Shown: piece after piece, positions 4,001 to 47,687 of the stretch
How positions within the stretch are numbered: position 1 is the stretch's first letter
Layout: every line of letters begins with the position of its first letter
Origin: a virus
Strand: one strand, 5' to 3'
Length of the DNA stretch: 64,000 nucleotides
Virus record (IMG/VR): IMGVR_UViG_3300044908_000026
Coordinates: 4,030-68,029 of that record
Program-made: the position numbers and the translations under genes
Notes under the pieces: model-generated
The model's input: the letters and a program-made list of their open reading frames with translations, nothing else
Database searches by the model: none
What the model was told of the DNA's origin: nothing

Positions 4001-4144
4001 GTCGCGAGAGACGATCAAGCAAGAGGACGGTCTCCCGCTGGTCTATGTGGATAGCTTCGAGCCGCGCGAGTTGCTTGATTTGCTTGAGCAGATTCAGCGC
4101 AATGAACCATTCGTCCAGGACTTTAGGGAGCTGGAGAGCGGAGA

Positions 4145-10820: not shown

Positions 10821-10977
10821 CCGTAGACCACCCATCCCCACCTCGGAGAAGATCCGAGCCGCGATTGAGCGGCTGGTGGAGATTAACGCGGGTATCTCGG
10901 GGTCGGCGCATCTAGAAATTTCGCTCGTACTGGATGCGCTGAAGCAGACTGTGCGAGCCGTGGAGGGTCGCCGGTGA
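10810..10977 (+). CDS. Small hypothetical protein
   Basis: RBS GGAGG; coupled to the RNA ligase. Confidence 0.5.
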   Translation: MAYSRRPPIPTSEKIRAAIERLVEINAGISGSAHLEISLVLDALKQTVRAVEGRR

Positions 10978-12032
10978 TTTACGAACATTTCGCCGCGTTG
11001 CCCGATCTAATCGAGCGCAAGATGATCTCCGCGCGAAAGCATCCCGAGTTACCGCTGTGGATTTACAACTACACTGTGCTCGCGCAGTTCACTCCGATAG
11101 CCGAGTGGACTCCAGCGATGTGTGATTGTCGCGGCCTGATTCTTGATGAGTCTGGAAACGTAGTTGGGCGTGCGTTCCGCAAGTTCTGGAACTATGAGCA
11201 AGTTCTTGATCGCATTCCAGTCTCCGAGCCATTCGAGGTATGGGAGAAATTGGACGGCAGCTTAGGGATCGTGTGCTTTTACCAGGGCAGGCGCGTGGTG
11301 TCCACGCGCGGCAGTTTCGAGTCCGAGCAGGCTCGATGGGCCGCGCAGTTCATGGACGCGCATTATCCAGATTTCGCGCCGGAACGTGAGCGCATGAGTT
11401 ATCTTTTCGAGATTATTTTTCCGAGCAACAGAATCGTCGTCGATTACGGCAAGCGGGAGGACATGGTCCTGCTATCGATCATGGACAATCTCGGTTTCGA
11501 TCTGGATGGATACTTTGAAGCTGAGATGAGATTCCCAAAGGCGCGGCGCTACGATGGAATTCTAGAATACGAGTTTCTCGAAACCCTCGGGGAGTGCCCT
11601 GAGCACGCAGGTAACGAGGGCTTTGTGCTGCGTTGGCCGTCTGGTTTTCGCGCGAAGGTCAAATTCGCAGAATATAAACGCCTGCATCGCCTAATTACGT
11701 CGTGCAGCACACGGACGATCTGGGAACTGCTACGCGCAGGGAAGGATACCTCCGAATTGATGGACCGCGTTCCTGAAGAGTTCGGAGTGTGGGTACGCGA
11801 GCAGATAGCGAGCCTTACGGAAGCACACAATCGGCTGATGGCCTGGGCGCACAGCACGTTTCAGGCTGCTCCCCAAAACGTAAGCCGCAAGGACTTCGCG
11901 GAGTACTCCAAGAAACAAACTCAGCCCGCATTACTGTTTTTATTGCTCGACGGCAAACCGATTGATGATGCCGTCTGGAAACTTGTTGAACCGAAGTGGG
12001 CGACGCCCTTTAGGAGAGATGCGGATGAGTAA
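10974..12032 (+). CDS. T4 Rnl1 (RnlA)-family RNA ligase
   Basis: IYNYT..CRGLILD..KFWN, EKLDGSL, STRGSF, FEII..NRIVVDY, EGFVLR, KVKFAEY. Confidence 0.92.
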   Translation: MIYEHFAALPDLIERKMISARKHPELPLWIYNYTVLAQFTPIAEWTPAMCDCRGLILDESGNVVGRAFRKFWNYEQVLDRIPVSEPFEVWEKLDGSLGIVCFYQGRRVVSTRGSFESEQARWAAQFMDAHYPDFAPERERMSYLFEIIFPSNRIVVDYGKREDMVLLSIMDNLGFDLDGYFEAEMRFPKARRYDGILEYEFLETLGECPEHAGNEGFVLRWPSGFRAKVKFAEYKRLHRLITSCSTRTIWELLRAGKDTSELMDRVPEEFGVWVREQIASLTEAHNRLMAWAHSTFQAAPQNVSRKDFAEYSKKQTQPALLFLLLDGKPIDDAVWKLVEPKWATPFRRDADE

Positions 12033-12885
12033 GACGTTGTTCATGATGCGCGGACTTCCGGCCTCCGGCAAGAGCACGCGCGCCAAGCAGATGCTGAAGG
12101 ACTTCGGAACAGGCAACGCGAAGCGCGTAAACAAGGACGAATTGCGGATTCTGCTTGATGACGGCCACTGGTCTGGGCCGAACGAGAAATTCCTTATCGG
12201 GGTTCGCGATCACATCATTATCTCTGCGTTGAATGCTGGCAAGCACGTCATCGTAGACGACACGAACCTAGCGCCTAAACATCAGGCTCGCTTGCGCGAG
12301 CTGGCCCTTCTAGGTGGGGCGTCGTTTGAGATTGTGGATTTTTCCCATGTCGGTGTTGATGAGTGCATTGAGCGCGACCGCAAGCGCCCCAATTACGTCG
12401 GCGAAAAGGTCATCCGCGGCATGTGGGATCAGTTCTTGCGTCCAAAGAGGGGAGCGGCGCCGGCCGATCCGTGGCTTCCATCGTGCCTGATTGTGGATGT
12501 TGACGGGACCGTAGCGCAGATGAACGGGCGTGGACCGTTCGAGTGGAGCAGGGTCGGAGAGGATCTACCAAGAAGGCCCATAATCCGCGCGGTGCTGGCC
12601 TATGGCGTTCCCTGGATCTTTATGAGCGGTCGCGACGAATGTTGCCGAGCAGCCACAGAAGAGTGGCTGACACAGTATTTCGGAGCGCCTGGTCCGCTCC
12701 ACATGCGGCCCGCTGGCGACTCGCGCAAGGACGCGATAGTGAAGCGCGAACTCTATGAGGCTCATATCCAGGGAAAATACAACGTGGAGGCAATTTTCGA
12801 TGATCGCCCGCAGATGATCCGAGAATGGCAGGCGCTTGGCTTCGCGGATCGGATTTTCAACGTCGGCGATGGAACGGAGTTTTGA
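12025..12885 (+). CDS. pseT: Polynucleotide 5'-kinase/3'-phosphatase (T4 PseT-like Pnkp)
   Basis: P-loop GLPASGKST, VDDTN; HAD motifs DVDGT, SGR, K, FDDR; overlaps the ligase stop. Confidence 0.92.
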   Translation: MSKTLFMMRGLPASGKSTRAKQMLKDFGTGNAKRVNKDELRILLDDGHWSGPNEKFLIGVRDHIIISALNAGKHVIVDDTNLAPKHQARLRELALLGGASFEIVDFSHVGVDECIERDRKRPNYVGEKVIRGMWDQFLRPKRGAAPADPWLPSCLIVDVDGTVAQMNGRGPFEWSRVGEDLPRRPIIRAVLAYGVPWIFMSGRDECCRAATEEWLTQYFGAPGPLHMRPAGDSRKDAIVKRELYEAHIQGKYNVEAIFDDRPQMIREWQALGFADRIFNVGDGTEF

Positions 12886-17051: not shown

Positions 17052-17540
17052 TCACCTGGCTCCCCAGCTATACCCTAACATCACGTTCTTAATGCTCGGG
17101 CTCCCTGCTGTGGTCGTGCCTCGGTAGCCCACACCGAATGTCAGCCATCCGGTAGCCGTGATCTGCCGCATGATAGTGCCGAACCCGCCGGTCGCCGCAC
17201 TGAAGCTGGTCGCGCTGGGCGTTTGTGTAACGCCGCCCGTGGCGAGCAAGTCGATTCGCGCGTACCACTTTCCATGCGTCCAGCTTTTTGCTTTGAGGTT
17301 CAGCCCCATCGAGGCTGTATCGCTCGGCTTGCCTTTGAAGAATGTCGCGTCAATAGCGTTGTACTCAGATAGGCCGCTTGCGGCTGAAATCAGGATGTCG
17401 CCTGCGCAGGTCACGCCGAAGTTGTGGCCATTATAGGAAGGGCCGCAACCAACCCAATCGAATGAGGGTGGCAATGTTTGTGGAGCGGGCGTCTGCGCGA
17501 AGGCGCAGGAGGTAAGGAGGGCGAGAAGGGTCAGGCGCAT
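17052..17540 (-). CDS. Secreted protein, possible small outer-membrane beta-barrel
   Basis: MRLTLLALLTSCAFA|Q signal; amphipathic strands; ends MLGYSWGAR. Confidence 0.55.
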   Translation of the reverse strand: MRLTLLALLTSCAFAQTPAPQTLPPSFDWVGCGPSYNGHNFGVTCAGDILISAASGLSEYNAIDATFFKGKPSDTASMGLNLKAKSWTHGKWYARIDLLATGGVTQTPSATSFSAATGGFGTIMRQITATGWLTFGVGYRGTTTAGSPSIKNVMLGYSWGAR

Positions 17541-21878: not shown

Positions 21879-22273
21879 CCAACCCAACCACACCGGAGAC
21901 GACGGAGCAGCAGCTCCTCCGTTTAGAACAAAAGATTGGCCATCAACGGCATGAGATCGAAAATCGCCTTATCGAAATCGGCAACCTCCTCGGGTTCAAA
22001 CGCAATATGGAAATGAACGTGGCGCATTGGTGCCCCGCGGAATTTAAGCGCCGACCGCTAGGTGGAATCGCGTGGATGGCTGAGCGTATCGCAACACTTC
22101 AAGCCGAACTCCAGTCGGCGCTCCATGACAAGGCCCTGCTAGAGCACGTGATGAATCACATGATGATCGTGAAGAGCGTTGGCCCCAACACTACAAGAAT
22201 CTGGGATACCCGCGAGGCGATTGCAGAAGACAAGCGGGAGTTTGAGGAAGCCCAGGAGAATGAGAAACCATGA
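21875..22273 (+). CDS. Hypothetical protein
   Basis: RBS AAGGAG; ATGA overlaps. Confidence 0.6.
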   Translation: MTNPTTPETTEQQLLRLEQKIGHQRHEIENRLIEIGNLLGFKRNMEMNVAHWCPAEFKRRPLGGIAWMAERIATLQAELQSALHDKALLEHVMNHMMIVKSVGPNTTRIWDTREAIAEDKREFEEAQENEKP

Positions 22274-22947
22274 AACTAGCCCTCACCCTGCTCGCTTTCG
22301 CCGCGCTCGCATCGGCCACCCCCACCTTCTCCGCAACCGCCTGGTGCGGCACGCAAGCCTACAGTGGTGGCTCCTGCTCTCTCACTGGCCCCACGTATCA
22401 GGAGTCTGTATCTTCGTTTGAATCGCCGTGGCAATCATGGGAGCAGTTCGGCGTCTCCACTCTATCTGGAGGTTCAGGCGGGACACAGGACGGATCGATC
22501 GCCACGGGGTTGCTTACCTACACGCAGACCGAGGAGATGGACGGAGTAGGCACCGGCATTGCCACGCTGGACCTCTACGTCTGCGTTAGCGGAACCCTCC
22601 CGCCGAACGGATGGGCAAGTGTCACGTTCGGGCAGACGAAGGCTTGGTACGGGGATGGCTGCGGCCACGAGGAATTGACAACGCCGTTCAACTATGCGGT
22701 GCCGTTCGATTTGAGCATCACGGTAGAATCTAGCGAATCGTCGATTGATCTCGGAGAGGGCGAGCAGGGGCAGAGCTTCGTGGCGATCACTGGGCTGACG
22801 CTGCCGCCCGATCCACCGCTGGAGCAGAGCAGCGTGCCGGAGCCTAAGGCGTGGATGCTGGCCGGAGGAGGATTGGTAATCATGCTGCTACTGCGAGGGA
22901 TGGCGCGGAGGAATCGAATCGGGCAGGATGGGGACTGGAGCGCCTAG
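22270..22947 (+). CDS. PEP-CTERM sorting domain protein
   Basis: Signal MKLALTLLAFAALASA; C-terminal VPEP + TM helix + RGMARRNR. Confidence 0.85.
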   Translation: MKLALTLLAFAALASATPTFSATAWCGTQAYSGGSCSLTGPTYQESVSSFESPWQSWEQFGVSTLSGGSGGTQDGSIATGLLTYTQTEEMDGVGTGIATLDLYVCVSGTLPPNGWASVTFGQTKAWYGDGCGHEELTTPFNYAVPFDLSITVESSESSIDLGEGEQGQSFVAITGLTLPPDPPLEQSSVPEPKAWMLAGGGLVIMLLLRGMARRNRIGQDGDWSA

Positions 22948-25900
22948 TTCACCCCGGTGATCTGCACCGGACCAGCCGCAATAATATTCCCGCTGTTGTC
23001 CACGCGCTCAATGCGATAGTATACGGTGCGCCCTGGGATCGCCGGGAGCAGCAAGGTGCAGCCGCTAGAACAGGCCGTGTAGCTCTGACTCGCGTCTCCG
23101 GCGAAGTAGTACGGGATCGTAGAAGTCGGCGATGGATTCGTCAGACAGGCTTCTTTCCGGTTGTAGGCGCAGTAATAATTCCCGGACCAATTTCCATTCG
23201 TCTCGTTCTCCGCGTATCCGAAGCGGAGTCGCGCATTCGCTACGTTGCTGGCCCCCGCAGTGATCGCTACATTTACAAACGCCCCCCGCTGTACCGTGTC
23301 TGAGGGAGGGAGCGCCGGAGTCTTGATGCTCATAATGTCGTTTCTCATTCCCGACCCGTAAAAGTCTCCGCCGCTGAAAGTCCATGAGCCGTTGTAGGAG
23401 TTATGGGTAGACGCGAACACATTCTGGAAGTTGTAGCGGTTGGCGATCTTGCTCAACTGTCGGAAAGTACGTCCATCCGTGATAGTCAATGCCTGTCCGG
23501 TTTGCGCATACGTCGGAATGCCGTTGAGATTGAACTGATTCACTCCACCCGCCGTCTGGTCGATGGTCACGCCGCAGATGCTTCGGTTGTAGTCCCAACT
23601 CCCGCTGCCGCCGCAATAACCTGGACTCGGCCCGCTGTTGTGCGCGGACTGCGGGACGTTCACGTACACATCGCCCACGGACGAGCCGCTTACGCACTCT
23701 CCTGCGATCCAGACAATGCAGAATTGCCAGTTGTGAAGCGAAGTCCCGTCAATCACCGAGGACGGCTTGCTGATGTCCTGAAGCAGGTAGCCCCCAGACC
23801 ACATCACGTAAGGTGTTGACTTGAGCAACGCGGGCCACGATCCGCTCACGTAACCCCGGACGTTGGCCGCCGCGATGTGCCACAGTGCTCCAGTGACATT
23901 ATCCGCCGTCTGCGCCCAAAGCTGATTGCTCGCGATGCTTATGTTGGACAACGCATTTGCGTCTGTCTCATAGTTGGGGCTTGCGGGATAACGCGATACG
24001 CTACCATGACTCTGCACACCGCCCGCAGTCGCCCCAGACCAGGAATTAAACGGAGCCTGATCAACTGCAATAAAACTACCCGGTTGCCCAGCGCCAGTTA
24101 CCAGAGAAGAAGCGAATCTAGCACGCCCTCCCATATCCATTAAGCTGGTTCCGGAGAACGTCCAAAAGTCGGCATGACCATTGATCTGCATCGTATAGTC
24201 CGGGATCGCAGCCTGCCCAGTGGGGTCTGTGTTCAGATTCATCCAAATCGTGCCGCCTGAGGCGCTAGGGCCGCCAGAGCATAGCTCTCGAAGCGTCCAT
24301 GGCGCGGTATGGGAGGCAATGTTCCCGTATCTGCTCTGCGTCCCATAAATAGTTGAATATCCAGCAGAGGTGTTCGGCGGGGTCCCGGGACCATTGTTCG
24401 GAGTTGCATACGCCCTAATAAACTGTCCGACTAGACCGGAGATAGAGACAAGTCGAAAGACCTCACCAGTGCTGCCATTCCCATCGTCAAAAAGCTCACC
24501 TACAGTCGTGTTGATCGGCGTCGAGCCGGATTGAATGAGATGCGAGTAGCTGCCGTTCCAGGAGCACGTCCCGAACATCGGAGCGCCCGGAGATGGTTGA
24601 TTCCAGCAAACATCCAAAGCCGACAACGCCAGGGTGACACACTGGGAGATGCCGTTATAAGCGGAGTAGTTCGGATCGGTGATCCCGCTGCACGTCTGGG
24701 TCTGGGTGTTGTTCAGGCTGGTGGTCGTCTGGATGAGATAATCGCCCTGCCCGACGTTTCCCCCTGGAGCAAGATTCGGCTCCGTGGCGATGAACTTATA
24801 CCCGTTCTGCGTCCCGGTTGCGTGAGTTCCGCAGAATCGACAGCCGTATCCAGAGTAGTCATTGACCATCGCCACGACGGAGTAAGGGGGAGATGCTGCC
24901 GGGTCCATGTCCCAACACCATGACATATAGTTTTGATTGTTTCCACCTCCAATCGAGCAAACTTCAACCCAACCAGTTAACGCATCGGGCGGCGGCCCGA
25001 ATGGGGCTAAATTTCCACCACTAAGCTGGCTTGGCGAGAACACCGGCAGTGCAGAATGGGCGGCGGCGTAGGCTGTTGCAACGGCTAGTGGAGTGTGATC
25101 GGCAGCGTCTGTGCCAACACTCGGAGTCACATTGTTGTAGGTATTGTTGCTGTTGTAAGGGAATGACGGGCAGTTGGCCGGGGTGATCTCCTGATAATTG
25201 TTCGGACACGATCCACTCGCAGCCGGATTGTAATAGCCGTCAACAATCGTGAGTGTCGCGGACGGCAGATGATTCGGGGCGTTGGCATAATTCACCCAAT
25301 GATTTTGGACCAAAGTGAACAGCGACCCGTTGATGTTATTAGAGACGGAGCCCCAATCGTTCTGGTGATTCCCAGTTACGCCCGTGGTGCAGTTCCCGGT
25401 GCTGCAACCCCCGAGGTAGGGCTCCATGAGTCCAAGGAACCGGCCTTTGCCGGAAACCTCTTCAATGAAAAACATCGGGTGGTAGATGTTCCCGCCAGCC
25501 GCCCAGTCGCACAGCCTGCCCACTATCCCGTTTGCATCGGTAACGGTGTAGTTGGCGCAGAGTTCGTTGACTCCGATTAGGGGCATCTGGACCACCATGT
25601 CTTCCCAGTCGGAGAAGGTGGACTGACCGCTTGAACCAGCGCAGTTCCCGCTGGTCGATCCGCTACACACCGTCAGGTTGCCGGTGGTATTCCCAGCCTT
25701 GCGGATCAACACGCCGAGCCCCTGATAGATGTAATTGTACGTTCCGTCCGCCGGCGGGCTGGCTATGGTGACCGAAGCCGGGGAGGTTATCGCCGTGATC
25801 CGGTATGGACTTGTCGTGGCCGAAGGGGCCAACGCTAGATTGATATAAGACCCTGCGCTCATGCTGCTAGGTCGGAAAAATTCTCCACTTGCCCATGTGC

Positions 25901-27125
25901 ATACGCCACTTGCTAAGGTACAGGTTCCAGTATGCGGCTGCATATCCGGACGCGTAAGGCGAGAGGTCGCCTGGTTCGCGAACCAGTAACCGAACACGGT
26001 CGCGTTGGTGCTGGTCCCATACACCGTAGAAGGATAGCCCGGAGCCGTGATCGCCCCCCCGGAGATTGCGCCCGAAGGCGGATAAGTGACCGGCGCGATA
26101 CTTCCACAGGTCAGGGACTCCCAATCGCTCGCCCGGTTCACACCATCAAGCGTGATCGCCATCTGGAAACCCGCCGAAGCGGTCGCCCCCGTGCAGGCTA
26201 TCTGAAAAGTCGCCTGGAAATCATCAGGGCTTAGATAGCCGCCCCACGTGTTCCCTCCGTTTTCTTGCGGGCAAGCGTCACTAGATCCAGGAGGCTGCAA
26301 ACCATAAATTCCAACACAGAAGTTGGGTGCGGCAATAAACAGCGGATCTTGGTTCGCGCCGGAGTTCGTGTTGTTGATCGTCGCTCCGGTATTGTTGGAC
26401 CAGTTGCCGTTACCAGCAGCGTCAAACGAATTGGCCGCAGGGGATGCGTTCAGGCCCATGTTGACCTGGTTAACAAACGCTGAGCCTGCGCCGCCATTTA
26501 CCACGCCAAGCGAGAGGAGTTCAAACTGCACGCCGGTGGTCGGGTCTGTGATCCACGTGTTGCGGTCGATCATAGGCCGGATCGTCGGCCACGCGAAATT
26601 ATACGGCGCGGATGCGTTGAACGGAGCAGGCTCGGGGAAGGTGTTGCCTGTCGGCGGGTTCGCAGTGACGAATGAGAAGTTCACCGTAGTGTCGGCGGTC
26701 AGCACTCCATAGATTGGACTTGCGGCGGGGAGCGCCCGCGAGGTCATGTGACTGTTGAGGTCAACTTGGGACGTGCGGAGTCCCACAACCATCGTGTAAG
26801 ATCCCGCCGACCCAACACTGCTCGACCGTGAACAATAATCCGCATTGGTGAACAGGGCTGGGTTTGTGTCGGCTAGCGGCAGGGTGTGCGCCGGATCGGA
26901 GTAGAGATCAACCGTGCAAGTTGAGCCGGTGTAGTGAACCGGGATGCTCGCCTGCGTTGCGGTTACCTGGATCGTGCCGAGGGAAGCCGCACGGAGCACA
27001 AGGGGGATGAGGTACAATACCGCCATGAGAAACACACTAAGGTCTTTTTGGAAACGCTCCGGTATCGTCATAATGATTGGGGTAACCTTCCTCGCTTGCA
27101 TGGCAGCCATAAGGGTCTTGCTCAT
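22944..27125 (-). CDS. Large Cys-rich secreted/receptor-binding-like protein (1393 aa)
   Basis: N-terminal hydrophobic segment ending LRA; about 30 Cys; G/S/T/N-rich beta content. Confidence 0.75.
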   Translation of the reverse strand: MSKTLMAAMQARKVTPIIMTIPERFQKDLSVFLMAVLYLIPLVLRAASLGTIQVTATQASIPVHYTGSTCTVDLYSDPAHTLPLADTNPALFTNADYCSRSSSVGSAGSYTMVVGLRTSQVDLNSHMTSRALPAASPIYGVLTADTTVNFSFVTANPPTGNTFPEPAPFNASAPYNFAWPTIRPMIDRNTWITDPTTGVQFELLSLGVVNGGAGSAFVNQVNMGLNASPAANSFDAAGNGNWSNNTGATINNTNSGANQDPLFIAAPNFCVGIYGLQPPGSSDACPQENGGNTWGGYLSPDDFQATFQIACTGATASAGFQMAITLDGVNRASDWESLTCGSIAPVTYPPSGAISGGAITAPGYPSTVYGTSTNATVFGYWFANQATSRLTRPDMQPHTGTCTLASGVCTWASGEFFRPSSMSAGSYINLALAPSATTSPYRITAITSPASVTIASPPADGTYNYIYQGLGVLIRKAGNTTGNLTVCSGSTSGNCAGSSGQSTFSDWEDMVVQMPLIGVNELCANYTVTDANGIVGRLCDWAAGGNIYHPMFFIEEVSGKGRFLGLMEPYLGGCSTGNCTTGVTGNHQNDWGSVSNNINGSLFTLVQNHWVNYANAPNHLPSATLTIVDGYYNPAASGSCPNNYQEITPANCPSFPYNSNNTYNNVTPSVGTDAADHTPLAVATAYAAAHSALPVFSPSQLSGGNLAPFGPPPDALTGWVEVCSIGGGNNQNYMSWCWDMDPAASPPYSVVAMVNDYSGYGCRFCGTHATGTQNGYKFIATEPNLAPGGNVGQGDYLIQTTTSLNNTQTQTCSGITDPNYSAYNGISQCVTLALSALDVCWNQPSPGAPMFGTCSWNGSYSHLIQSGSTPINTTVGELFDDGNGSTGEVFRLVSISGLVGQFIRAYATPNNGPGTPPNTSAGYSTIYGTQSRYGNIASHTAPWTLRELCSGGPSASGGTIWMNLNTDPTGQAAIPDYTMQINGHADFWTFSGTSLMDMGGRARFASSLVTGAGQPGSFIAVDQAPFNSWSGATAGGVQSHGSVSRYPASPNYETDANALSNISIASNQLWAQTADNVTGALWHIAAANVRGYVSGSWPALLKSTPYVMWSGGYLLQDISKPSSVIDGTSLHNWQFCIVWIAGECVSGSSVGDVYVNVPQSAHNSGPSPGYCGGSGSWDYNRSICGVTIDQTAGGVNQFNLNGIPTYAQTGQALTITDGRTFRQLSKIANRYNFQNVFASTHNSYNGSWTFSGGDFYGSGMRNDIMSIKTPALPPSDTVQRGAFVNVAITAGASNVANARLRFGYAENETNGNWSGNYYCAYNRKEACLTNPSPTSTIPYYFAGDASQSYTACSSGCTLLLPAIPGRTVYYRIERVDNSGNIIAAGPVQITGVN

Positions 27126-27136
27126 ATTCCTTGGAA

Positions 27137-28195
27137 CTATTGCTGGCCTGTAGCGAATCCCAGTACTTCAATTGTAACCTGAGTCCCATCGGAGTTTAAG
27201 ACTTGGTAGAGCGGTTCAATGTAGGTGTTCGGAACATGCGTGGTAATAGGAGTTTGCGCGGTTCCGTTTATCTCCCACGTAATCGTACCGGCACTCGAAC
27301 TCGCGAAGGAAAACGAATAGTACGTAGAGGTGGCCACCGTCACTGTGGATGCCTGTGAAGTACAAGCGCTCCCATCGCAAGCTCGCAGCACCCAATGCGC
27401 GTCCGTTCCCGGTTCAAATACAACCCCTACGCAGAGATGGGAGGTTGTGCCGTCGCACACGGGCTGACCAACCCCGCCCTGTTGTTGAAGCCCAAACCGA
27501 TATGCGCCGTGAGAGGTAGAGGAAACATTGCGAACCGCCCATGCTTGCCCAGTAAAAGTCGCTGATGGATTGATCGCCCCTGCCCCGCTATAGTACTCCG
27601 CATAATTCCCGCTAGATGCCCCCGAGGAGGATGTCGAACCGCACTGGTAAAGTGACAGTGCCGTTCCGTTGGCCGCGCTGCCGCCATTATTATTTTGCGA
27701 AAACTCGAATGCACTTCCGCCAACTTGATTACTACAGAAGTTCTCCACCGTCCATCGCTGCGACAGATCGAACGGATTGAAACTAACAGTGGATACAGAT
27801 ACCCCGATGCCGAAACCCGCACTCACGCCGCCCCCTCCCCCGCCACACGCCGCCGCCTGCGGATTGAGTAACTGAAACCGCGTCCCGTCGTACTGCACAT
27901 AGGCTACCGCTGTTGTCGTGAGATCGTTAGCAACAAGCGCCGTCGTTCCGCACTTTGTAATCGTCGGCGGCGATGCGATGCCGTTGACCGCAAGCGTGGG
28001 TCCACTTCCCGTATTGGCCGCTGCTGGAAGCCACGACACCCACATCCCGGCGTAGTAAGAGGCGAAGGGTTGCGGAACGGTGACAGTCTGCGCCTGTGCC
28101 GTCCCACCGCCAGCGGCGTAGGGCGGGATGAATCCGGGGGTCGCTTGCCCGAAGATCGCAACACAAGAGAATAACAACAGAATGATCTTTTTCAT
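27137..28195 (-). CDS. Tail-fibre-like protein with signal peptide
   Basis: MKKIILLLFSCVAIFG|Q; AAANTG..TLAVNG..YDGTRFQL fibre motif; lectin-like C-terminus. Confidence 0.75.
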   Translation of the reverse strand: MKKIILLLFSCVAIFGQATPGFIPPYAAGGGTAQAQTVTVPQPFASYYAGMWVSWLPAAANTGSGPTLAVNGIASPPTITKCGTTALVANDLTTTAVAYVQYDGTRFQLLNPQAAACGGGGGGVSAGFGIGVSVSTVSFNPFDLSQRWTVENFCSNQVGGSAFEFSQNNNGGSAANGTALSLYQCGSTSSSGASSGNYAEYYSGAGAINPSATFTGQAWAVRNVSSTSHGAYRFGLQQQGGVGQPVCDGTTSHLCVGVVFEPGTDAHWVLRACDGSACTSQASTVTVATSTYYSFSFASSSAGTITWEINGTAQTPITTHVPNTYIEPLYQVLNSDGTQVTIEVLGFATGQQ

Positions 28196-28199
28196 AATT

Positions 28200-30077
28200 T
28201 TAGTTTCCAGAACACACGAAATCGAACAGATATGCCGCCGCTGATACGTTAGCGATGGCCGCTGTGATTGTAAACGCCGTCGTGCTGGGCGTACCGTGGC
28301 CGATTCCAACCGAAACAATCCCGCCATTCTGCATAACGGTGCAATTCGGAGCCGTCCCGTAGGCCGCTCCAAACGTGACCGTAGCAATTGTGCCTGTGGT
28401 CACGGCGGTCGATGGGACACTGACGGTACCTACAAAATCCGTGCCGCTGATCGTCGGCGTGGTACCAATAGCACCCCCCGCCGCGACCGTGGGCGTGGAG
28501 TTGCCAACGAAGTGAAGCGCCTTGAGGGGCGAGGTTTGGTCAAACCCAATTGTCTTGACTCCAGCAGAAATACTGGAGGTCATATTCGTGCCCGTCAGAA
28601 CCACGTTCGTACTCAGGAACGAACGCCAATCCACGCAGCCCGTTGAGGCTGATGGCAGGCAGGTGGTGAAACTATCCCATGTGTTCGCCGTCGCTCCGGC
28701 CGTCAATTTGAACAGCGGCTTTACGTCGTTCGGAAATCCGCTCGCGCCGCTGTTGCCCGCTGCCAGCGGCGAAACAAACGCAACGCCGGTGAAGTTCGCC
28801 CCCGAGGTATCGCAAGCAATCGTTGTGGAGAGTCCCCAATAGCACCAAAATGACGTGGCCGTCGCCGCCCCAGTACTGAGTGTGATCGTCGGCGAGCCCG
28901 CTGCCAGCGACACAGCATAAGAACCAACTCCTAGATTCGTGTTGCCTGTCGGGATCAGCATCGTCACTACGGTGTTTGAGGTTCGCGTCACAGTCAGATC
29001 GGTAAGCTGGTTGGCGATGGTTGCACCGCCGCCACCGCCTGAATACTGCGGGATATTCAACGTATTTGTGGATTGCGTATAGGTGGAGGCCCCGCTGCTT
29101 CCGGTCGTCGTCAGCGTGATTGGCAAATTCGTCAGATTGGTTGCGTTCCCGCTCGCTGGAGTGCCAAGTGCGGGAGTTACCAATGCAGGGCTGGTTGCTC
29201 TGACCACGCTCCCGGTACCCGTAGTCCCAAGTTCGCCGAGCACTCCGGAATTATTGATCTCGACGTTTCCGTTCGTTCCACCGCTGATCGTGGTCGTTCC
29301 CACCGTCAAACCACTGCCGCTCCCGAATAATTGCTGCGACCCGTCCGTCGCCAGCCCATAGGCCGCAGAGGCATGCCCTCCCGAGAACTCGCTCACCACA
29401 TCCGCGGCAGTCTGCGCGATAAGCTGACGGCTGCTATTCGTCTTTGTCCCAGCCGCCGAAGCGGGCACGACCGCCCCGTTCACATCAACCACCGTGGCGT
29501 TCGAGCAAGTTCCGATGAGGTCGCCTCCGAGCGTGCCGCAGCCCGCGCCTTGTGCTCCTGCGGGACCCACACCGGCCCCGCCGTAGATCACGTACTCAAC
29601 CGTGTAGGAGCCGCCAAGAGTGATGACCACATTCCCCGTTGAAGTTGAGTCGGAACACGCTACCTTGGCCGACCCAGCAGTCAGGCAACTTACCCCAGCG
29701 GCGGTGTAATCACCGGAGCTACTATAAACGTCCACGTGTGGGTGAACGCCTTGCCCGTGCGTTGAGGCTAAGATCGTCGCCGTCGTGCTGGTGAACGTCC
29801 CGACATAGGGAGGCGTCCCCGAACTCCCCGTCTGCTGCGTCCACGTGTTGGTAGCCGTGCAAAGGTAGACATTGTCCCCCGCCGTGGCGTTCGTGATGAA
29901 TGCAGTTTGCCCCACCGTGCATGTCGCGGGAATGCCAGAAAGCGCCCCGATGTAAACGAACCCGCCGGAACCGCCGCCACCCGAAGCCGGAGGCCACTGA
30001 CCCCAGCCCTGCGCTTTCGCGCGACTCGCAGTCCCGATCATCAACAGGACTAAGGCACTCGCTCGAATCAGTCGCAT
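28200..30077 (-). CDS. Tail-fibre-like protein with signal peptide
   Basis: MRLIRASALVLLMIGTASRAKA|Q; GTGSVVRATSPALVTPALGTP, GPAGAQG and LGGDL fibre motifs; paired Cys. Confidence 0.75.
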   Translation of the reverse strand: MRLIRASALVLLMIGTASRAKAQGWGQWPPASGGGGSGGFVYIGALSGIPATCTVGQTAFITNATAGDNVYLCTATNTWTQQTGSSGTPPYVGTFTSTTATILASTHGQGVHPHVDVYSSSGDYTAAGVSCLTAGSAKVACSDSTSTGNVVITLGGSYTVEYVIYGGAGVGPAGAQGAGCGTLGGDLIGTCSNATVVDVNGAVVPASAAGTKTNSSRQLIAQTAADVVSEFSGGHASAAYGLATDGSQQLFGSGSGLTVGTTTISGGTNGNVEINNSGVLGELGTTGTGSVVRATSPALVTPALGTPASGNATNLTNLPITLTTTGSSGASTYTQSTNTLNIPQYSGGGGGATIANQLTDLTVTRTSNTVVTMLIPTGNTNLGVGSYAVSLAAGSPTITLSTGAATATSFWCYWGLSTTIACDTSGANFTGVAFVSPLAAGNSGASGFPNDVKPLFKLTAGATANTWDSFTTCLPSASTGCVDWRSFLSTNVVLTGTNMTSSISAGVKTIGFDQTSPLKALHFVGNSTPTVAAGGAIGTTPTISGTDFVGTVSVPSTAVTTGTIATVTFGAAYGTAPNCTVMQNGGIVSVGIGHGTPSTTAFTITAAIANVSAAAYLFDFVCSGN

Positions 30078-30113
30078 GAAGATTTCTCCCTATTATGCTA
30101 AACTCTACCGCAG

Positions 30114-30872
30114 ATGGTCACCGCCATCAACCAGATTTTGACTTTCGTTGGGATCTACCATCCCAGCCCGATTCGCTATACTTGGGCAGCGCTAACACTT
30201 CTATCGATCATCCTGCGTGCGCTTGCCATCCGGCACGTCGATCTATTCCCGGCGTTTCGTTTGTACATGGCTGCCACAATCTGTGCCACAATCTTCCAAA
30301 ACAGCCCATCATGGGGCATTGTTGCCGAAATCCTGCTCATCATTCCTTTGGCGCTGTTCACAGTAGAAGTCCTATTTCGAGAATCATTCACCGTCGCCCA
30401 TTATGCTGCCGTTTATGATCGCCAGTTCTCTGCGCTGGTCGGCCTGATCGCGCTCGGCGCGATGATGTACTTCGTGCCGCCTCCATACGCGGGATATTCC
30501 CATGCGCTCTACTACGCCCGCGTTTACTCAACAGAGATCGCCTTTGCTGTCGTCGTGAGTACGTCTGCCTTCGCGTGGTCGATGCGGGTTCGCGTGCCTG
30601 TGTTCATCCGCACACATGGGTTGCTTGCCGCTGCGTGGCTTGGCGCGATTCTGTGGGCCGGAGCCGTGCGCGGGCTGGATCGCTGGAACGTGGCCGTCAT
30701 CTCAACCGCATGGCAAGTGGCATGCCTCATCATCTGGATGGCGGTCGCAGCGACTGGATCTCGCGGTAAATCGCGCCCAACTGCTCCTGTAAGCGCAATT
30801 GATCTTCGTTCCGCTGTTGCCGCAGATCGTCGAACCTTCGGTCGTACTCGCGTAAATTCTCCGTCACGATGA
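30114..30872 (+). CDS. Polytopic (about 7 TM) membrane protein, antisense to the late operon
   Basis: Multiple hydrophobic segments; upstream TGCTAAACT extended -10. Confidence 0.7.
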   Translation: MVTAINQILTFVGIYHPSPIRYTWAALTLLSIILRALAIRHVDLFPAFRLYMAATICATIFQNSPSWGIVAEILLIIPLALFTVEVLFRESFTVAHYAAVYDRQFSALVGLIALGAMMYFVPPPYAGYSHALYYARVYSTEIAFAVVVSTSAFAWSMRVRVPVFIRTHGLLAAAWLGAILWAGAVRGLDRWNVAVISTAWQVACLIIWMAVAATGSRGKSRPTAPVSAIDLRSAVAADRRTFGRTRVNSPSR

Positions 30873-31047
30873 CGTGAACCAGATTCCGCACAGCCTCTTC
30901 GATAGGAGCACTTCTGCCTGTAGCCCTAGATAGTCTGGCCTGCATGCTCTTTATCACAGCACCCAGGATGCCAATGACCACCACCAAAGCAGCGACGATC
31001 TTCTGCCACAGAGTTGAATCCGGTTGAGTGCCTTGTGCGTCAAGCAT
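30730..31047 (-). CDS. Single-TM coiled-coil protein (holin/antiholin-like)
   Basis: IVAALVVVIGILGAVI followed by coiled coil; lysis region. Confidence 0.55.
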   Translation of the reverse strand: MLDAQGTQPDSTLWQKIVAALVVVIGILGAVIKSMQARLSRATGRSAPIEEAVRNLVHVIVTENLREYDRRFDDLRQQRNEDQLRLQEQLGAIYREIQSLRPPSR

Positions 31048-31050
31048 TTA

Positions 31051-31614
31051 TCAGAGATTCTTGTGCGTCTCGCACCGAAGGATCTTGCGGACGCTAGGAA
31101 ACGGTGCTCCGTAGGCGACTGCCACTTCATTTACTGTTTTACCGGAACTTTTCAACGCCCTCATCCCGAGGATTTCCTCATTGGTGTACATCCTCGGAGG
31201 GATTCTGTTGCTCACGACGCGTCCTTTCGCGTTACGGTCGAGTACATTCTGCGCGTTGCTGCCTTCGAGCAAGTGACCGCGCATTGGATTGAACACGCCA
31301 TCGATCTCATACCACCCGCGCGTGTCGTTGCGGACGCATGCCGGATTGTCGCAGGCGTGAAGTACGCACTGTCCCGGTGTGATCGGACGCCCGAGAGCTT
31401 CGGTGAGCGCGAAGACATGGACGGCGATGTTCTTGATCTTTAAAGTTTCGGATTCGGTCTGCCCAAGTTGGATGCTAGCGTAGCCCCACCGATTTTTACC
31501 GCCAGTCCAAACCCAGCACGGACCGAGTTCTGGGTTACGCCCAGGGATTGGACCGTCTTTATCGACGTGACTCCAGAAGCGCTTTGCGGCTGGTATGAAA
31601 GTTCGAATACGCAT
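31051..31614 (-). CDS. HNH homing endonuclease
   Basis: RFWSHVDK..CWVWTG..VLHACDNPACV..HL..G...N..D..KGR plus C-terminal HTH. Confidence 0.85.
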   Translation of the reverse strand: MRIRTFIPAAKRFWSHVDKDGPIPGRNPELGPCWVWTGGKNRWGYASIQLGQTESETLKIKNIAVHVFALTEALGRPITPGQCVLHACDNPACVRNDTRGWYEIDGVFNPMRGHLLEGSNAQNVLDRNAKGRVVSNRIPPRMYTNEEILGMRALKSSGKTVNEVAVAYGAPFPSVRKILRCETHKNL

Positions 31615-31631
31615 AAGTCCAATTATATCAA

Positions 31632-31910
31632 TCAGGGCCAGGGGGGTCCAGGAGGATTGTACGTCACTTCCGCCGTCATCACATCGTAAAGCCATTCTCC
31701 CGTGACCGGCGTTCCGCCCTTCAGGTAAATTGCGCCGACGTTGAACCACTTCCCATCGGGGCTGTGGTCGCCGACGCTGGTGATGATGCCCGGCCAGAGC
31801 GTGCCGTCATCTTCGAGATACGGTGCCCATTGGCCGACTTGCGGCGCTTTGCCGCGCTGCGCTACTGGCGGTTTCGGTAGATTGTTGTTCATGATTCTCC
31901 CTTCATCCAC
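31632..31910 (-). CDS. Hypothetical protein
   Basis: ORF track; P.VGQ..WPGIIT.V pattern. Confidence 0.5.
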   Translation of the reverse strand: MDEGRIMNNNLPKPPVAQRGKAPQVGQWAPYLEDDGTLWPGIITSVGDHSPDGKWFNVGAIYLKGGTPVTGEWLYDVMTAEVTYNPPGPPWP

Positions 31911-32418: not shown

Positions 32419-32688
32419 TTACTTAGTCTCCGTCACCACCGATGTTGCGGGCGGGTTGCCTGTTGTGGTTGCGGTCGTGCGGCTGGCGGCGAGAGCATGG
32501 CCAGTGATTAAGCCGAGCAAAGCACCAAGGACGGTGTCTGCGATCTCTCGCCCCCACAGAACAAGCTCCTGGTCGCGGGCGTCATGGACCAGATGCACGA
32601 CCAACACAATGCAGGCTAGGAATACAAACACGAGCAAGAGCTTGTCGAAATTCTCCTGGACGAATTTGGACCAACTCGTCGGGTTCAT
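32419..32688 (-). CDS. Holin-like 2-TM protein
   Basis: Two hydrophobic segments; lysis cassette. Confidence 0.6.
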   Translation of the reverse strand: MNPTSWSKFVQENFDKLLLVFVFLACIVLVVHLVHDARDQELVLWGREIADTVLGALLGLITGHALAASRTTATTTGNPPATSVVTETK

Positions 32689-32972
32689 GGTTTCTCGGGC
32701 GGAGCTGGCGCTGTCGGAGTTGTAACGGTGACGACTGGCGACTGCGTTGAATTGGCGATGACCTCAGGACTCGACGGTTGCGAGATCGTACCGCCGCTGA
32801 CTTGGCTATCCTTCGCGCTGACGCCGAAGCTCGCCAGCCCCCCCGCCATCGTAAACATTGCAATCGCCATTGCCCAGTTAGGAAAAGTGATGTAGTGAAG
32901 CTGCTGTGCAAAAAGAACGAAGGCGGAGGCGGCTGAAATTGCCGAAGTGACTGTGGTTCTCCAGGATTTCAT
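32685..32972 (-). CDS. Holin
   Basis: MKSWRTT...AKD pattern with two TMs. Confidence 0.7.
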   Translation of the reverse strand: MKSWRTTVTSAISAASAFVLFAQQLHYITFPNWAMAIAMFTMAGGLASFGVSAKDSQVSGGTISQPSSPEVIANSTQSPVVTVTTPTAPAPPEKP

Positions 32973-33148
32973 AGGCCAGTCAACGCCTTTAATGTGGGCC
33001 ACGTCACATACACCGACAGAAAAAACACACCCCAACAAAACGCAGCACTACCGTACCACGGAGCCGGGGCCGCTTGCCTCCACCACCACGATTGGCCCAA
33101 TGCCGCGAGGAAGAGAAGCAAAACAGTTAGAACAGCAATAAACGCCAT
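32969..33148 (-). CDS. Small 2-TM membrane protein, 59 aa
   Basis: Not in the ORF track; RBS AAGGAG; MAFIAVLTVLLLFLAALG...AAFCWGVFFLSVYVTWP; ATGA overlap. Confidence 0.7.
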   Translation of the reverse strand: MAFIAVLTVLLLFLAALGQSWWWRQAAPAPWYGSAAFCWGVFFLSVYVTWPTLKALTGL

Positions 33149-33160
33149 AAATTCTCCTTT

Positions 33161-33688
33161 TTATCCGATCACCGTCTCTGCCTCTTCCTCCACAATCGAA
33201 ACCGGAAACGGCCCGATTCCAGCCACAAGCGGTCGCACTTGCGTGAAGTCCTGTTCCCATGTTCGCAGACACCCGTACGTCGGACGGAGCGCGTTGCTCC
33301 CGTTCGGAGGTCCGCTGTGGATCGCTAGCCCCATGTTCACGTCCAGCCCCTCGCTGGTCTGCCTCGCCCAAGCGTCCGAGGTGCCGTCGCCCTCTTGTGG
33401 GGTCAGCCAGATCACGGGAATTGCTCCGCTGTCGTCAGGCAGGCCATAGCCGTAGCGATTCTCGGGCGTGTCTGGAACGTGCGCCAATCGCGCGATATAG
33501 TTCCCGGTCGGAGTATCGCCGAATGCCTTCCGTGGATCGCGTGTAGGGTTGCCGTGCGCCGCAGCCGCCGCATTGTCGCTCTTGCCGTCGCACTGGAACG
33601 GCCCGAGATTTGTTGAACCATCATCGTTCAGGAGCGACCACGTTCCGAGGATCAGACGGTTTGCGGGAAGTTGCGCGACGATTTTCAT
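33161..33688 (-). CDS. L,D-transpeptidase (YkuD)-fold enzyme, probable endolysin
   Basis: DTPTGNY..LAIHSG..LRPTYGCLR His/Cys dyad; immediately upstream of holins. Confidence 0.75.
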   Translation of the reverse strand: MKIVAQLPANRLILGTWSLLNDDGSTNLGPFQCDGKSDNAAAAAHGNPTRDPRKAFGDTPTGNYIARLAHVPDTPENRYGYGLPDDSGAIPVIWLTPQEGDGTSDAWARQTSEGLDVNMGLAIHSGPPNGSNALRPTYGCLRTWEQDFTQVRPLVAGIGPFPVSIVEEEAETVIG

Positions 33689-40624: not shown

Positions 40625-40953
40625 CACTCTCCGAAATCAAACGTGAACTTCACGAATGGATCGCTCAGCATGGTGGACCCGTGCAGTATTTCCACGTGCA
40701 TGTCGGCTTTGACTCCTACAAGTGCGTTATCTGCCACTACGAATTACGATTCCATCTGCTTGAATACATTAACAAGCAATGGGAACACGTTTACATCAAC
40801 AGCATCGGCGCTCCACATTCTATTGCAGAGATCCAGGAATACGCCGACGAAGCGGTGCTCAAACTTTTAATCAACACGGAACGATGGCCCCTTACTGAGT
40901 GGGCACTCGCCCCGCCGATTCCACAACTGACTACCATAAAGGAACCTCAATGA
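40621..40953 (+). CDS. Hypothetical protein (moron)
   Basis: ATGA coupling; more AT-rich than flanks. Confidence 0.6.
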   Translation: MTLSEIKRELHEWIAQHGGPVQYFHVHVGFDSYKCVICHYELRFHLLEYINKQWEHVYINSIGAPHSIAEIQEYADEAVLKLLINTERWPLTEWALAPPIPQLTTIKEPQ

Positions 40954-41354
40954 AACTCGCACTCGCATCCCTCTTCATTTTCGCTACGTCCTTCGCGGCT
41001 GCTCAACCGACCACTACCACATTTGCATTGAACTTCAGTTCGACGCGCATCGCCCAGCTCAACAGCCAAGGGTTCATACTTCCCTCGCCACAGCTACCCT
41101 TTCTCCAGATATTCATCGTCAGTAACATACAAATCGGCAACGCGGCCTACACGATCTCCGTTTCATACTCGGACCCGAAGGGCAACCCTAAGGCGCAAAC
41201 AGCTACCTGTACGGCGTCACAAACTCCATTCGGGCAGGACGGGACCACGCTGACCCAATGCCTCGTGTACTTAGACGCCATTAATGGTGCCACCGTCACG
41301 ATCACTCCGCTCCTGCCTGTTGCCACATTGCCGTCCATCTCGGTACTGCCCTAA
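40950..41354 (+). CDS. Secreted beta-rich protein (moron)
   Basis: MKLALASLFIFATSFAAA|Q signal; one Cys pair. Confidence 0.7.
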   Translation: MKLALASLFIFATSFAAAQPTTTTFALNFSSTRIAQLNSQGFILPSPQLPFLQIFIVSNIQIGNAAYTISVSYSDPKGNPKAQTATCTASQTPFGQDGTTLTQCLVYLDAINGATVTITPLLPVATLPSISVLP

Positions 41355-46754: not shown

Positions 46755-47687
46755 TTAGCTGACGTAACTGTATCCGTTCATCAACGGGTAATCGATCCGG
46801 CGCGGCCTGTACCGCTGCGGTCTTACTGGAATACCCTGTTTGGCTTTGAGCATGGGAACGATCAAAGCACGAAGAAACCCGCCGCCTCCGTCCGCGACTC
46901 CGCTTTCCCCGTAAGCGTCCATGCGCAACTGCGGACCCATCGGCAGCTGCCGCTTTGGGCTGAAGTGCGCCGCCGTCGCCGTTTTCAGGAAATTCAATTC
47001 GCGCCCGTTGGCGAAACCAATCACACCCGAAGGGGGAGGGTCTTCGCCCGCGTAGTACTGAATCCAAAGCTGGCGAACCTCGCTCGAGCCCTGAAACCAG
47101 AGGATATTATCCTGCCAGCACCAGAACCCGAGCGTCTGACCAACAGGGCCGGATGGAATACTCTGCTGGGGCAGCATCGGGATAAAGCTATCCGCAGACG
47201 ACATCACGGTGCCGCCCGTGCCGTTCGACCCGCACACAATCGAACCGTTCAGCGTAAAGGCCGTTGGACTCGTCACTGTGATGAGCCAGTCCCGATTGAT
47301 CCAGCCAGGCACGCCCTGCACGCCGTTCAGTTCCGCCCGCGAGCTCGTATTCAATCCGTGCGGAGCCGCCGTCGTGACGGTCTGCGGAGTTCCATCGGTG
47401 GTCGAGGTAATCGCCACGCTTGAAACGGAACCGCGCTCCCAAATCTTGTACGGCTCATCGAAGTCCGTCACCCCAAGGGCACTCGGAAATAGCGCGCCGG
47501 TATTCGCGGACAGACTGAAATAAACCTCGCGCTGAATCACCGGCAACTGGAGTTTGATCGACAGGTCCATCATCTCGCCGTAAGAGGTCTGAAAGTCGTC
47601 GATGATTTCCTGCGTAATCTCGCCGCTCGCGTCCCCAAGCGCGGACTGTGCGCCGGTTAGTATATCCTGGACGGTGCAATCGCTCAT
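46755..47687 (-). CDS. Head-tail adaptor with inserted beta domain
   Basis: TVQDIL..A...LGD N-terminus; TVTTAAPHGL insertion; synteny. Confidence 0.6.
   Translation of the reverse strand: MSDCTVQDILTGAQSALGDASGEITQEIIDDFQTSYGEMMDLSIKLQLPVIQREVYFSLSANTGALFPSALGVTDFDEPYKIWERGSVSSVAITSTTDGTPQTVTTAAPHGLNTSSRAELNGVQGVPGWINRDWLITVTSPTAFTLNGSIVCGSNGTGGTVMSSADSFIPMLPQQSIPSGPVGQTLGFWCWQDNILWFQGSSEVRQLWIQYYAGEDPPPSGVIGFANGRELNFLKTATAAHFSPKRQLPMGPQLRMDAYGESGVADGGGGFLRALIVPMLKAKQGIPVRPQRYRPRRIDYPLMNGYSYVS

Follow-up and report, generated by a model that had tools for sequence, protein, structure and literature searches.

A soil-phage cassette of predicted exported fibre-module and propeller proteins, and its possible action on host envelope polysaccharide

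Fibres and depolymerases of tailed phages are regarded as parts of the particle which are put together in the cytoplasm. Why would a phage place export signals on a set of genes that resembles such parts? The question is raised by three consecutive minus-strand genes, here called A, B and C, in a 64,000-nucleotide stretch of DNA (below, the window), which runs from base 4030 to base 68029 of one virus record of 68,029 bp, IMGVR_UViG_3300044908_000026. The record comes from a soil phage and is classed in its collection as having direct terminal repeats and as 100% complete. A preliminary description of the window, made from the sequence alone, had singled out these genes as tail-fibre- or spike-like genes with signal peptides, and their positions and sizes are as it gave them (Table 1). 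The cassette takes up 7.1 of the 68 kb, which is more than one tenth of the genome, and its three products total 2370 aa. The answer that we favour, and to which we give about an even chance of being right, is that A, B and C are exported non-virion proteins which cut, bind or mask the envelope polysaccharide of the host.

The first line of evidence concerns the N-termini. Signal peptides were called by reading the sequences, by a crude script of our own and by conservation in relatives; the pattern sought for Sec type I was a positive n-region, a hydrophobic core of 8-15 residues and small residues at positions -3 and -1. The script flagged 14 of 82 greedily chosen open reading frames (ORFs), A and C among them, and B lay outside its gene set. 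By reading, A (N-terminus MRLIRASALVLLMIGTASRAKAQGW, expected cleavage after AKA) and B (MKKIILLLFSCVAIFGQATP, expected cleavage after IFG) fit the Sec type I pattern, and C carries a hydrophobic run, SVFLMAVLYLIPLVLRAAS, at aa 30-48, which may be a signal peptide or an anchor. These starts, already noticed in the preliminary description, are kept in relatives of each family. Of the 13 database homologues of C that were read, 11 have a short signal peptide of the classic kind at their start; of the other two, one is a partial sequence whose start falls within the hydrophobic run and the other is cut N-terminally. The homologous C ORFs read in genomic and viral loci all have a signal-peptide-like N-terminus (9/9). 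From the expected cleavage site onward, one homologue and C line up residue by residue (...AASVGNIQVTATQ versus ...RAASLGTIQVTATQ). For A, 12 relatives were read, chosen as the best-scoring or longest-covering of 254 matches; ten are signal-peptide-like and two have ordinary fibre N-termini. The 16 relatives of B that were read, out of 96 matches, comprise eight with signal-peptide-like N-termini, four with a basic stretch and one membrane span, three with neither and one that is cut. Across relatives, the signal peptides persist at 21-63% identity. A lipoprotein reading of B, suggested by LFSC at aa 8-11, was dropped, as only about 10 residues would precede the cysteine.

It could be argued that nothing is exported at all, either because the true starts lie downstream of the hydrophobic segments or because the N-termini are non-functional relics. 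The source gene call for A speaks for this and hence against our reading: it starts at an internal GTG, yields 476 aa, and drops both the signal peptide and the two-Cys module described below. However, AGGGAG, a good Shine-Dalgarno match, stands 8 nt upstream of the ATG that we use, and a relative 87% identical to A retains the entire N-terminal 149 aa with the signal peptide. For B and C, the N-termini are part of the source gene calls. Moreover, the three candidate starts of C (M1, M9 and M19) all lie upstream of its hydrophobic run, the choice among them altering only the length of the n-region, and the persistence of the signal peptides over the range of identities given above argues in the same direction. 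We therefore regard a lack of export as hardly probable.

The second line of evidence is the cysteine content, which had been described as high and proved to be so. C has 33 cysteines, A has 12 and B has 9 (the last counted by eye), against 0-2 in many of the phage's structural ORFs, and several of the cysteines are invariant across the C family. Since both the signal peptides and cysteines are conserved, the products appear to be exported, probably disulfide-bonded, and not ordinary virion parts assembled in the cytoplasm. Of the exported, disulfide-bonded appendage set that had been proposed, the first two attributes can thus be retained; nothing ties the products to the virion. C also behaves as a real gene under selection, since a variant contig found in a different soil metagenome departs from it mostly at third codon positions (16 of 21 differences in a partial listing for 25044-25119).

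Where else does C occur? The family is small: 13 homologues were found among 5.8 billion clusters, and 145 representatives at E ≤ 1e-3 among 1.84 billion in a search with a single sub-sequence. When one genome per prokaryotic species was scanned, 55 C loci were obtained, and 55/55 were titled Acidobacteriota; these include Bryobacterales, Solibacteraceae, Terriglobia and Acidobacteriaceae, with the cultured strain KBS 96 among them. Only one other viral contig carrying C was found (L001). In it, C follows three large ORFs, the first of them cut at its 5' end and two of them with signal peptides, and lies just upstream of terminase-, portal- and capsid-like genes (by eye). Comparison of A, B and C by tblastn with 50,697 GenBank phage records gave no match, and a scan of viral contigs with A alone found nothing.

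The chromosomal surroundings of C are mostly those of polysaccharide biosynthesis. Eight of 91 chromosomal C loci were read by eye (the viral loci read being L001, L093-L096 and L107), and in seven of the eight C is surrounded by polysaccharide genes. L016 is an XrtA/PEP-CTERM exopolysaccharide (EPS) locus with exosortase, EpsI, chain-length determinant, ATPase, priming transferase, deacetylase and amidotransferase genes (NCBIfam E 1e-40 to 7e-210). Wzy_C O-antigen-ligase-like genes adjoin C in L017, L024, L030 and L038, Wzt is present in L004 and in L067, the KBS 96 locus, and Wzm in L067; asparagine synthase and UDP-GlcNAc 2-epimerase are also among the neighbours. UDP-glucose or GDP-mannose dehydrogenases are encoded in L004, L017 and L024, and these could supply the uronic acids that a lyase needs. 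The chromosomal homologue in L004 (8888-14029) is itself larger than the phage protein, at 1713 aa, with about 350 extra residues after the signal peptide that have a LamG/ConA-type look by eye.

In several of these loci C is not alone. A signal-peptide protein of 283-372 aa is encoded immediately upstream of C in L004, L024 and KBS 96. In KBS 96 the partner gene overlaps the start of C, and the pair (L067 5075-9954) is adjoined by convergent wzt, wzm, a glycosyltransferase-like ORF (by eye) and asparagine synthase. The phage gene A resembles this partner: its 35-aa two-Cys module (aa 49-85) shares 56-57% identity with the chromosomal partners (BLAST, E 6e-10 and 2e-9), and its central domain, LTDLTVTRTSNTVVT, matches LGDLQVTRTSNTVLT of the partner with 36% identity over 72 aa (A aa 442-513, E 5e-5). 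We also scanned 92 loci with a DNA pattern back-translated from the core of the two-Cys module, Y-x-C-T-x-x-N-x-W. The pattern was found in 28 of the 92 loci, with 32 matches, all on the strand of C, and 31 of them within 0-6.3 kb upstream of C; about 0.1 matches would be expected by chance according to our own arithmetic. A complete upstream flank of 6 kb was available for 40 of the genome loci, and 16 of these 40 contain the pattern. The order of parts in A is signal peptide, Gly linker, two-Cys module, Ig-like stretch, fibre-type repeat (GTGSVVRATSPALVTPALGTP) with a TLNIPQY module, partner-like domain (aa ~345-500) and a C-terminal part of its own. Alignment gives A the architecture of the partner plus an insert, made up of the Ig-like stretch, the fibre repeat and TLNIPQY, which is absent from the chromosomal partners. 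Judged by these alignments, A is a mosaic of a chromosomal secreted partner and a fibre-type insert. The AlphaFold2 (AF2) model of A was unreliable, with a predicted local distance difference test (pLDDT) score of 49.

What C may do was approached through its predicted structure. For aa 150-1300 an AF2 model was computed from an alignment of 61 sequences; its mean pLDDT is 84.9 and its predicted template modelling (pTM) score 0.88, and it is almost all beta. In VIA alignments it forms one 7-bladed beta-propeller with about 300 aligned residues, the blades of which are spread over C aa ~185-1273 (model residues ~36-1124) with large domains inserted between them. The top match of 48,161 chains was the polysaccharide lyase family 22 (PL22) oligogalacturonate lyase 3c5m_A (Z 11.8, root-mean-square deviation (rmsd) 3.5 Å, 327/376 aligned), about 2 Z above the pack of WD40 proteins (Z ≤ 9.9). 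Foldseek gave matches at E ≤ 1e-3 to two chains only, both of the phi92 endosialidase 4hiz (E 4.6e-4, probability 0.35-0.38), which by VIA scored Z 9.2-9.6, tied with WD40 proteins; weaker Foldseek matches after the endosialidase were sialidase, PL24, glycoside hydrolase family 93 (GH93) and PL42 propellers. A chondroitin-sulfate-binding carbohydrate-binding module matches model residues 62-360 (Z 7.9). A Foldseek search of the model against BFVD returned no match at E ≤ 1e-3, and an ESM Atlas search with C was uninformative (best score 0.76). In the C family H768, H984, C1136 and C1144 are invariant (H numbering is model +149), and R763, E888 and R904 are invariant or nearly so. The modelled fold and these residues fit a carbohydrate-active enzyme; the fold alone shows no function. 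The PL22 match of the propeller, together with the dehydrogenase genes in three loci, favours a set of enzymes or binders directed at host surface polysaccharide.

Comparison with known propeller proteins and glycan-cleaving enzymes shows both likeness and difference. The PL22 enzyme 3c5m, from Vibrio parahaemolyticus, is likewise a 7-bladed beta-propeller, and the C family has invariant His and Arg residues. PL22 enzymes are about 380 aa long and cytoplasmic, whereas C has 1393 aa, is predicted to be secreted, and has its blades separated by inserted domains. Like C, the phage endosialidase is a beta-propeller in a phage genome, and C too would probably act on a surface polysaccharide. Endosialidases (GH58), however, are trimeric virion parts with an N-terminal virion adaptor and no signal peptide. 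C instead starts with a predicted signal peptide, its blades are parted by large insertions, and its chromosomal homologues belong to biosynthesis loci. The resemblance is slight (Foldseek probability 0.35), and Pfam found no S74 chaperone domain in C. The glycanases and lyases PslG, AlgL, BcsZ and ExoK are encoded inside bacterial EPS operons. A secreted or periplasmic enzyme that cleaves the product of its own locus is, by analogy, the role that we would assign to the chromosomal homologues of C, although none of the four is a large propeller with a small partner bearing a two-Cys module.

The link between the cassette and phage fibres runs through A and B. Both fibre motifs that had been pointed out in two of the genes are present, and both recur in proteins with tail-fibre domains. 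The GTGSVVRATSPALVTPALGTP repeat and TLNIPQY module of A recur, often many times, in the matched proteins, some of which carry Peptidase_S74 (PF13884), Gp53-like_C (PF21882) or pectate-lyase (PF12708) domains; PF21882 was confirmed at E 1.7e-17 in a protein bearing the fibre motif. In B, a well-conserved module (aa 27-117, ...AANTGSGPTLAVNG...YDGT.FQLLNPQ) follows the signal peptide, and in the alignment it is succeeded by a Gly linker, after which the C-terminal domain is variable and contains cysteines. The relation of A and B to fibres thus lies in short modules common to proteins with PF13884, PF21882 or PF12708, and neither they nor C matched a tail-fibre sequence family, or showed a recognisable virion-attachment domain, in PHROGs and Pfam at E ≤ 0.1. 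The label of tail fibre or spike is therefore apt for A and B as far as their fibre-type modules go, and, judged by sequence, not for C, which had no Pfam, PHROG or NCBIfam match. A three-copy complex prediction of B (aa 20-352) scored 0.01 against a mark of 0.42 and was uninformative on trimer formation.

The B module has 163 relatives in IMG/VR viral contigs. Of five that were read from among the top-ranked loci, four have signal peptides and the fifth, L095, is a giant fibre with the B module that is open at its 5' end. L093 (190-7574, in a record classed as a provirus) has five consecutive signal-peptide genes, two of them with the B module, and one product, a signal-peptide protein of 979 aa, has a GDSL-type esterase match (E 5e-6, below the Pfam cut-off). 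L094 encodes a 1327-aa signal-peptide protein containing the module. L107 and L096 belong to complete genomes of about 105 kb with terminal repeats, and there both the B-like and neighbouring genes bear signal peptides. Signal peptides on fibre-module genes in these other viral loci indicate that the pattern recurs in uncultivated soil phages. In L001 (3-8021) and L107 (2-3997), giant (>1300 aa) Cys-rich proteins, their N-termini cut by the locus ends, precede the signal-peptide genes; they look Kelch-like by eye, and the one tested had no Pfam match.

Some of these data would suit a different fate of the exported proteins, namely that uncleaved signal anchors hold them on the periplasmic face until lysis frees them to strip the polysaccharide of neighbouring cells. 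The hydrophobic run of C starts only at aa ~30, which leaves a long n-region, and the four B relatives out of 16 with a long basic N-terminus and one membrane span lack a classic signal peptide; the esterase match in L093 fits as well. On the other hand, most relatives have short classic signal peptides that end in small residues followed by Q or A, and we consider such tethered release quite unlikely.

A rival with a better, though still low, probability, and the second option of the preliminary description, is that the proteins serve as fibres or adhesins on the cell surface and not as enzymes. A and B would perhaps be anchored through C or through their N-terminal modules, and the set would alter adhesion, aggregation or biofilm formation. 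Such display is envisaged on an infected or carrier-state cell, much like that of the mosaic adhesive trimer (MAT) proteins of Bdellovibrio bacteriovorus, which are exported tail-fibre-like proteins (PMC10769870). [quoted passage not shown] A and B share with them tail-fibre-like character, a signal peptide, a conserved module next to it, variable tips and a predicted place outside the cytoplasm and not on a virion. MATs are chromosomal genes of a predator, whereas the genes here are carried by a phage; many MATs end in an S74 chaperone-protease domain, which is present in one subfamily, and Pfam found no S74 in A or B; MATs are not known to have a propeller partner or a link to polysaccharide loci, and the likeness is by description and not by sequence comparison. 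Within our data, the adhesin explanation is favoured by the fibre-type modules of A and B, with conserved proximal and variable distal parts, by a PEP-CTERM-like surface protein encoded next door (PF07589 below cut-off, see below), and by the match of C to non-enzymatic propellers, which is almost as good as that to enzymes. However, no tyrosine integrase or resolvase was found in the phage (search controls were positive in 14/14 and 12/14 genomes) and it carries RNA-repair genes, so that it looks virulent; an adhesin would then have little time in which to be of use. Moreover, C has its best fold match in a lyase, and the genes around it in chromosomes serve biosynthesis and not adhesion. On balance, a purely adhesive role seems unlikely to us.

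Finally, A, B and C might be virion appendages after all, as in the first option of the preliminary description: after folding and disulfide formation in the periplasm, they would attach to completed particles once the envelope ruptures. Signal-peptide proteins with fibre modules are common in viral contigs, including complete genomes, and a small insert of C (model residues 646-800) resembles the phage baseplate domain 8rk3 (Z 8.6, rmsd 2.2, 77 aa). Against this, the phage has fibres of its own: the two genes described as canonical fibres do match PHROG tail-fibre families and, as had been said of them, lack signal peptides, their N-termini not being hydrophobic. C and the core of A have chromosomal, non-phage homologues in polysaccharide loci, the Pfam and PHROG searches recognised no domain for attachment to virions, and we know of no periplasmic-maturation pathway in tailed phages. 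We therefore hold this explanation to be very improbable.

We return to the reading of A, B and C as exported non-virion proteins that act on host polysaccharide, for which we infer export, cleavage, enzymatic activity, substrate, cooperation between A and C, and benefit to the phage. The three proteins would leave the cytoplasm via Sec and act on the O-antigen or EPS of the infected cell. C, as a secreted propeller of an Acidobacteriota-only family, would most likely cleave the polymer in a lyase- or glycosidase-like manner, or would at least bind it. A would be the phage version of the small secreted partner, lengthened by an insert of tail-fibre type, and would position or target C, and B, as a further fibre-module protein with a variable and probably sugar-binding tip, would add another binding specificity. 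The gain for the phage is likely to be the destruction or masking of its polysaccharide receptor on infected cells and on debris, which would lead to superinfection exclusion and to less loss of progeny; alternatively, a loosened EPS matrix may ease release.

Several observations besides the shorter gene call for A weigh against this reading. As the phage is apparently virulent, the classic logic of lysogenic conversion is not directly applicable to it. None of the three proteins had a match in Pfam or PHROGs (E ≤ 0.1) or in NCBIfam, and sequence searches of the PDB with profiles of C and B and with A gave nothing meaningful, so that no enzyme family was recognised. For PL22 in particular, C had no Pfam or NCBIfam match and its family profile found nothing in the PDB at E ≤ 1; the 3c5m match is at the level of fold, with 10% identity, and non-enzymatic WD40 propellers match the model at Z 8-10. 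The partner gene is absent from L016 and from L038, the locus of the closest chromosomal homologue, and L009 has no polysaccharide genes near C. The BLAST similarity of A to the chromosomal partners is limited to short modules, and that to the partner-like protein of L001 is not significant.

Envelope-directed accessory genes and virion depolymerases are each well known in phages. The former include signal-peptide-bearing envelope proteins such as Lom and Bor of lambda and Llp of T5, and the O-antigen conversion genes Gtr and Oac. As in the present cassette, these are accessory genes at the edge of the structural block, the envelope-bound products of which change the receptor landscape. They are, however, small lipoproteins, outer-membrane proteins or inner-membrane transferases, found mostly in temperate phages, whereas the cassette encodes three large proteins which are predicted to be secreted and among which fibre modules and a propeller occur, and no integrase was found in the genome. 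The present case stands apart by its combination of a complete, virulent-looking genome, a three-gene set predicted to be exported, fibre modules joined to a host-type partner, and a propeller that also occurs in polysaccharide loci of the host phylum. The titles and abstract beginnings of the literature found on secreted phage depolymerases and superinfection exclusion contain no description of signal-peptide-bearing fibres, and no literature was found on Acidobacteria prophages with PEP-CTERM. The first phage isolates of Acidobacteriota are reported in PMC11924767, the main text of which does not contain the terms "signal peptide" or "tail fiber".

Two of the three proteins share modules with tail fibres, and the third shares ancestry with a secreted propeller of the host phylum. 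If our reading is true, phages reuse a polysaccharide-processing pair of the host outside the cytoplasm, and an uncharacterised family of Acidobacteriota (145 representative clusters, with the pair present in cultured KBS 96) gains a first functional handle. It would also follow that fibre-like genes in soil viromes should not automatically be used as virion receptor-binding proteins in host prediction. The KBS 96 gene pair lends itself directly to genetic work. Soil structure and soil carbon are matters in which Acidobacteriota and their EPS play a part, and very little work has been done on the phages of this phylum. A far wider claim would be that a sizeable group of soil phages, probably of Acidobacteriota, regularly send disulfide-rich fibre, spike and propeller proteins via Sec to mature in the periplasm, where these either join virions at lysis, as an extracytoplasmic branch of tail assembly, or form a separate receptor-destroying or -masking apparatus from parts of host O-antigen and EPS operons; in this general form we find it very doubtful.

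The setting of the cassette in the phage genome is summarised in Table 1.

Table 1. Features of the window mentioned in the text (positions in the window)
Feature	Coordinates	Strand	Remarks
Gene C	22944-27125	-	1393 aa ORF
Gene B	27137-28195	-	352 aa from ATG; ORF open up to TTG at 28387
Gene A	28200-30077	-	625 aa ORF
Convergent neighbour of C	22270-22947	+	225 aa; signal peptide MKLALTLLAFAALASA; PEP-CTERM-like C-terminus
Divergent neighbour of A	30114-30872	+	252-aa putative ORF; ~4-6 hydrophobic spans
Sigma-70-like promoter match	30092-30121	-	GTGACC, 18 nt, CATAAT; just upstream of A; lead only
HNH endonuclease	31051-31749	-	phrog_1872, E 1e-16; between structural block and cassette
Tail-fibre gene	39035-39868		matches PHROG tail-fibre family; N-terminus not hydrophobic
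Tail-fibre gene	41351-43420		matches PHROG tail-fibre family; N-terminus not hydrophobic
terL	56695-58590		PHROG phrog_2; distant tblastn matches to annotated terminases
RNA-repair set	4496-5524, 10974-12032, 11962-12885 (+); 47684-48217 (-)	+ and -	PHROG matches
157-aa ORF beside terL	58748-59221	-	classic signal-peptide-like start MRKSTAVQIAIALVLIAFPFFAAKADWQ (MRKSTAVQIAIALVLIAFPFFAAKAD); no Pfam/PHROG match
Small signal-peptide-like ORF	17052-17540	-	begins MRLTLLALLTSCAFAQ; no Pfam match
Small signal-peptide-like ORF	40950-41354	+	begins MKLALASLFIFATSFAAAQ; no Pfam match

The cassette sits between convergent early and late gene blocks. It had been placed after a lysis cassette and among late genes, and neither statement was borne out: no lysis cassette was recognised, the ORFs at 33161-33688, 32685-33038 and 30730-31047 having no usable Pfam or PHROG match, and the plus-strand neighbour of A separates it from the minus-strand genes upstream. 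The ATG of B lies 4 nt past the stop of A. A scan of the region for promoters and terminators was at the level of chance, with 5 sigma-70-like sites against 5.0 expected. GC content is even across the region and phage genes flank both sides; an assembly chimera was rejected on these grounds. Contigs from three other soil runs contain only pieces of the cassette of 190-814 nt. The gene junctions are bridged only by the probable source run, so that the gene order is known from that run.

Both ORFs that flank the cassette appear to be directed to the envelope. The C-terminus of the convergent neighbour of C shows, by eye, VPEP, a hydrophobic run and an Arg-rich tail; PF07589 matched its last 45 aa at E 0.052 with 14.1 bits (cut-off 20.7), over profile positions 1-23 of 24, and the whole protein had no Pfam match at default thresholds and no NCBIfam match at E ≤ 1e-3. 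Its PEP-CTERM-like sequence suggests a host with an exosortase system. The divergent neighbour of A, which had no Pfam or PHROG match and for which an ESM Atlas search was uninformative, may belong to the same envelope-directed island. With A, B and C these make five envelope-directed genes, and so the region of 22.3-30.9 kb reads as an island.

As for the rest of the phage, terL gave only distant matches (<30% identity) in tblastn against GenBank phage records; a phrog_2 terminase was not found in five other viral records, nor was the terL of the window found in the record of L001. Ten large structural ORFs had no Pfam match. Genes for RNA ligases and for a polynucleotide kinase are found in the early block on the plus strand: the RNA-repair set matches the RNA ligase families phrog_968 (2e-85) and phrog_562 (7e-50), the polynucleotide kinase family phrog_505 (1e-76) and a further PHROG 'RNA ligase' family, phrog_755 (E 1.4e-11). 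By analogy with T4, such a set could counter anticodon nucleases of the host. The signal-peptide-like start that had been noticed on a fourth gene, beside terL, was also found here, and in total at least seven ORFs of the phage have N-termini of this kind. Lastly, a plus-strand ORF at 786-1700 encodes a protein of 304 aa which begins MTWLADARGNKCSVEYFG, contains 55 cysteines (18%) and matches two PHROG families of unknown function (E 2e-26 and 2e-22).

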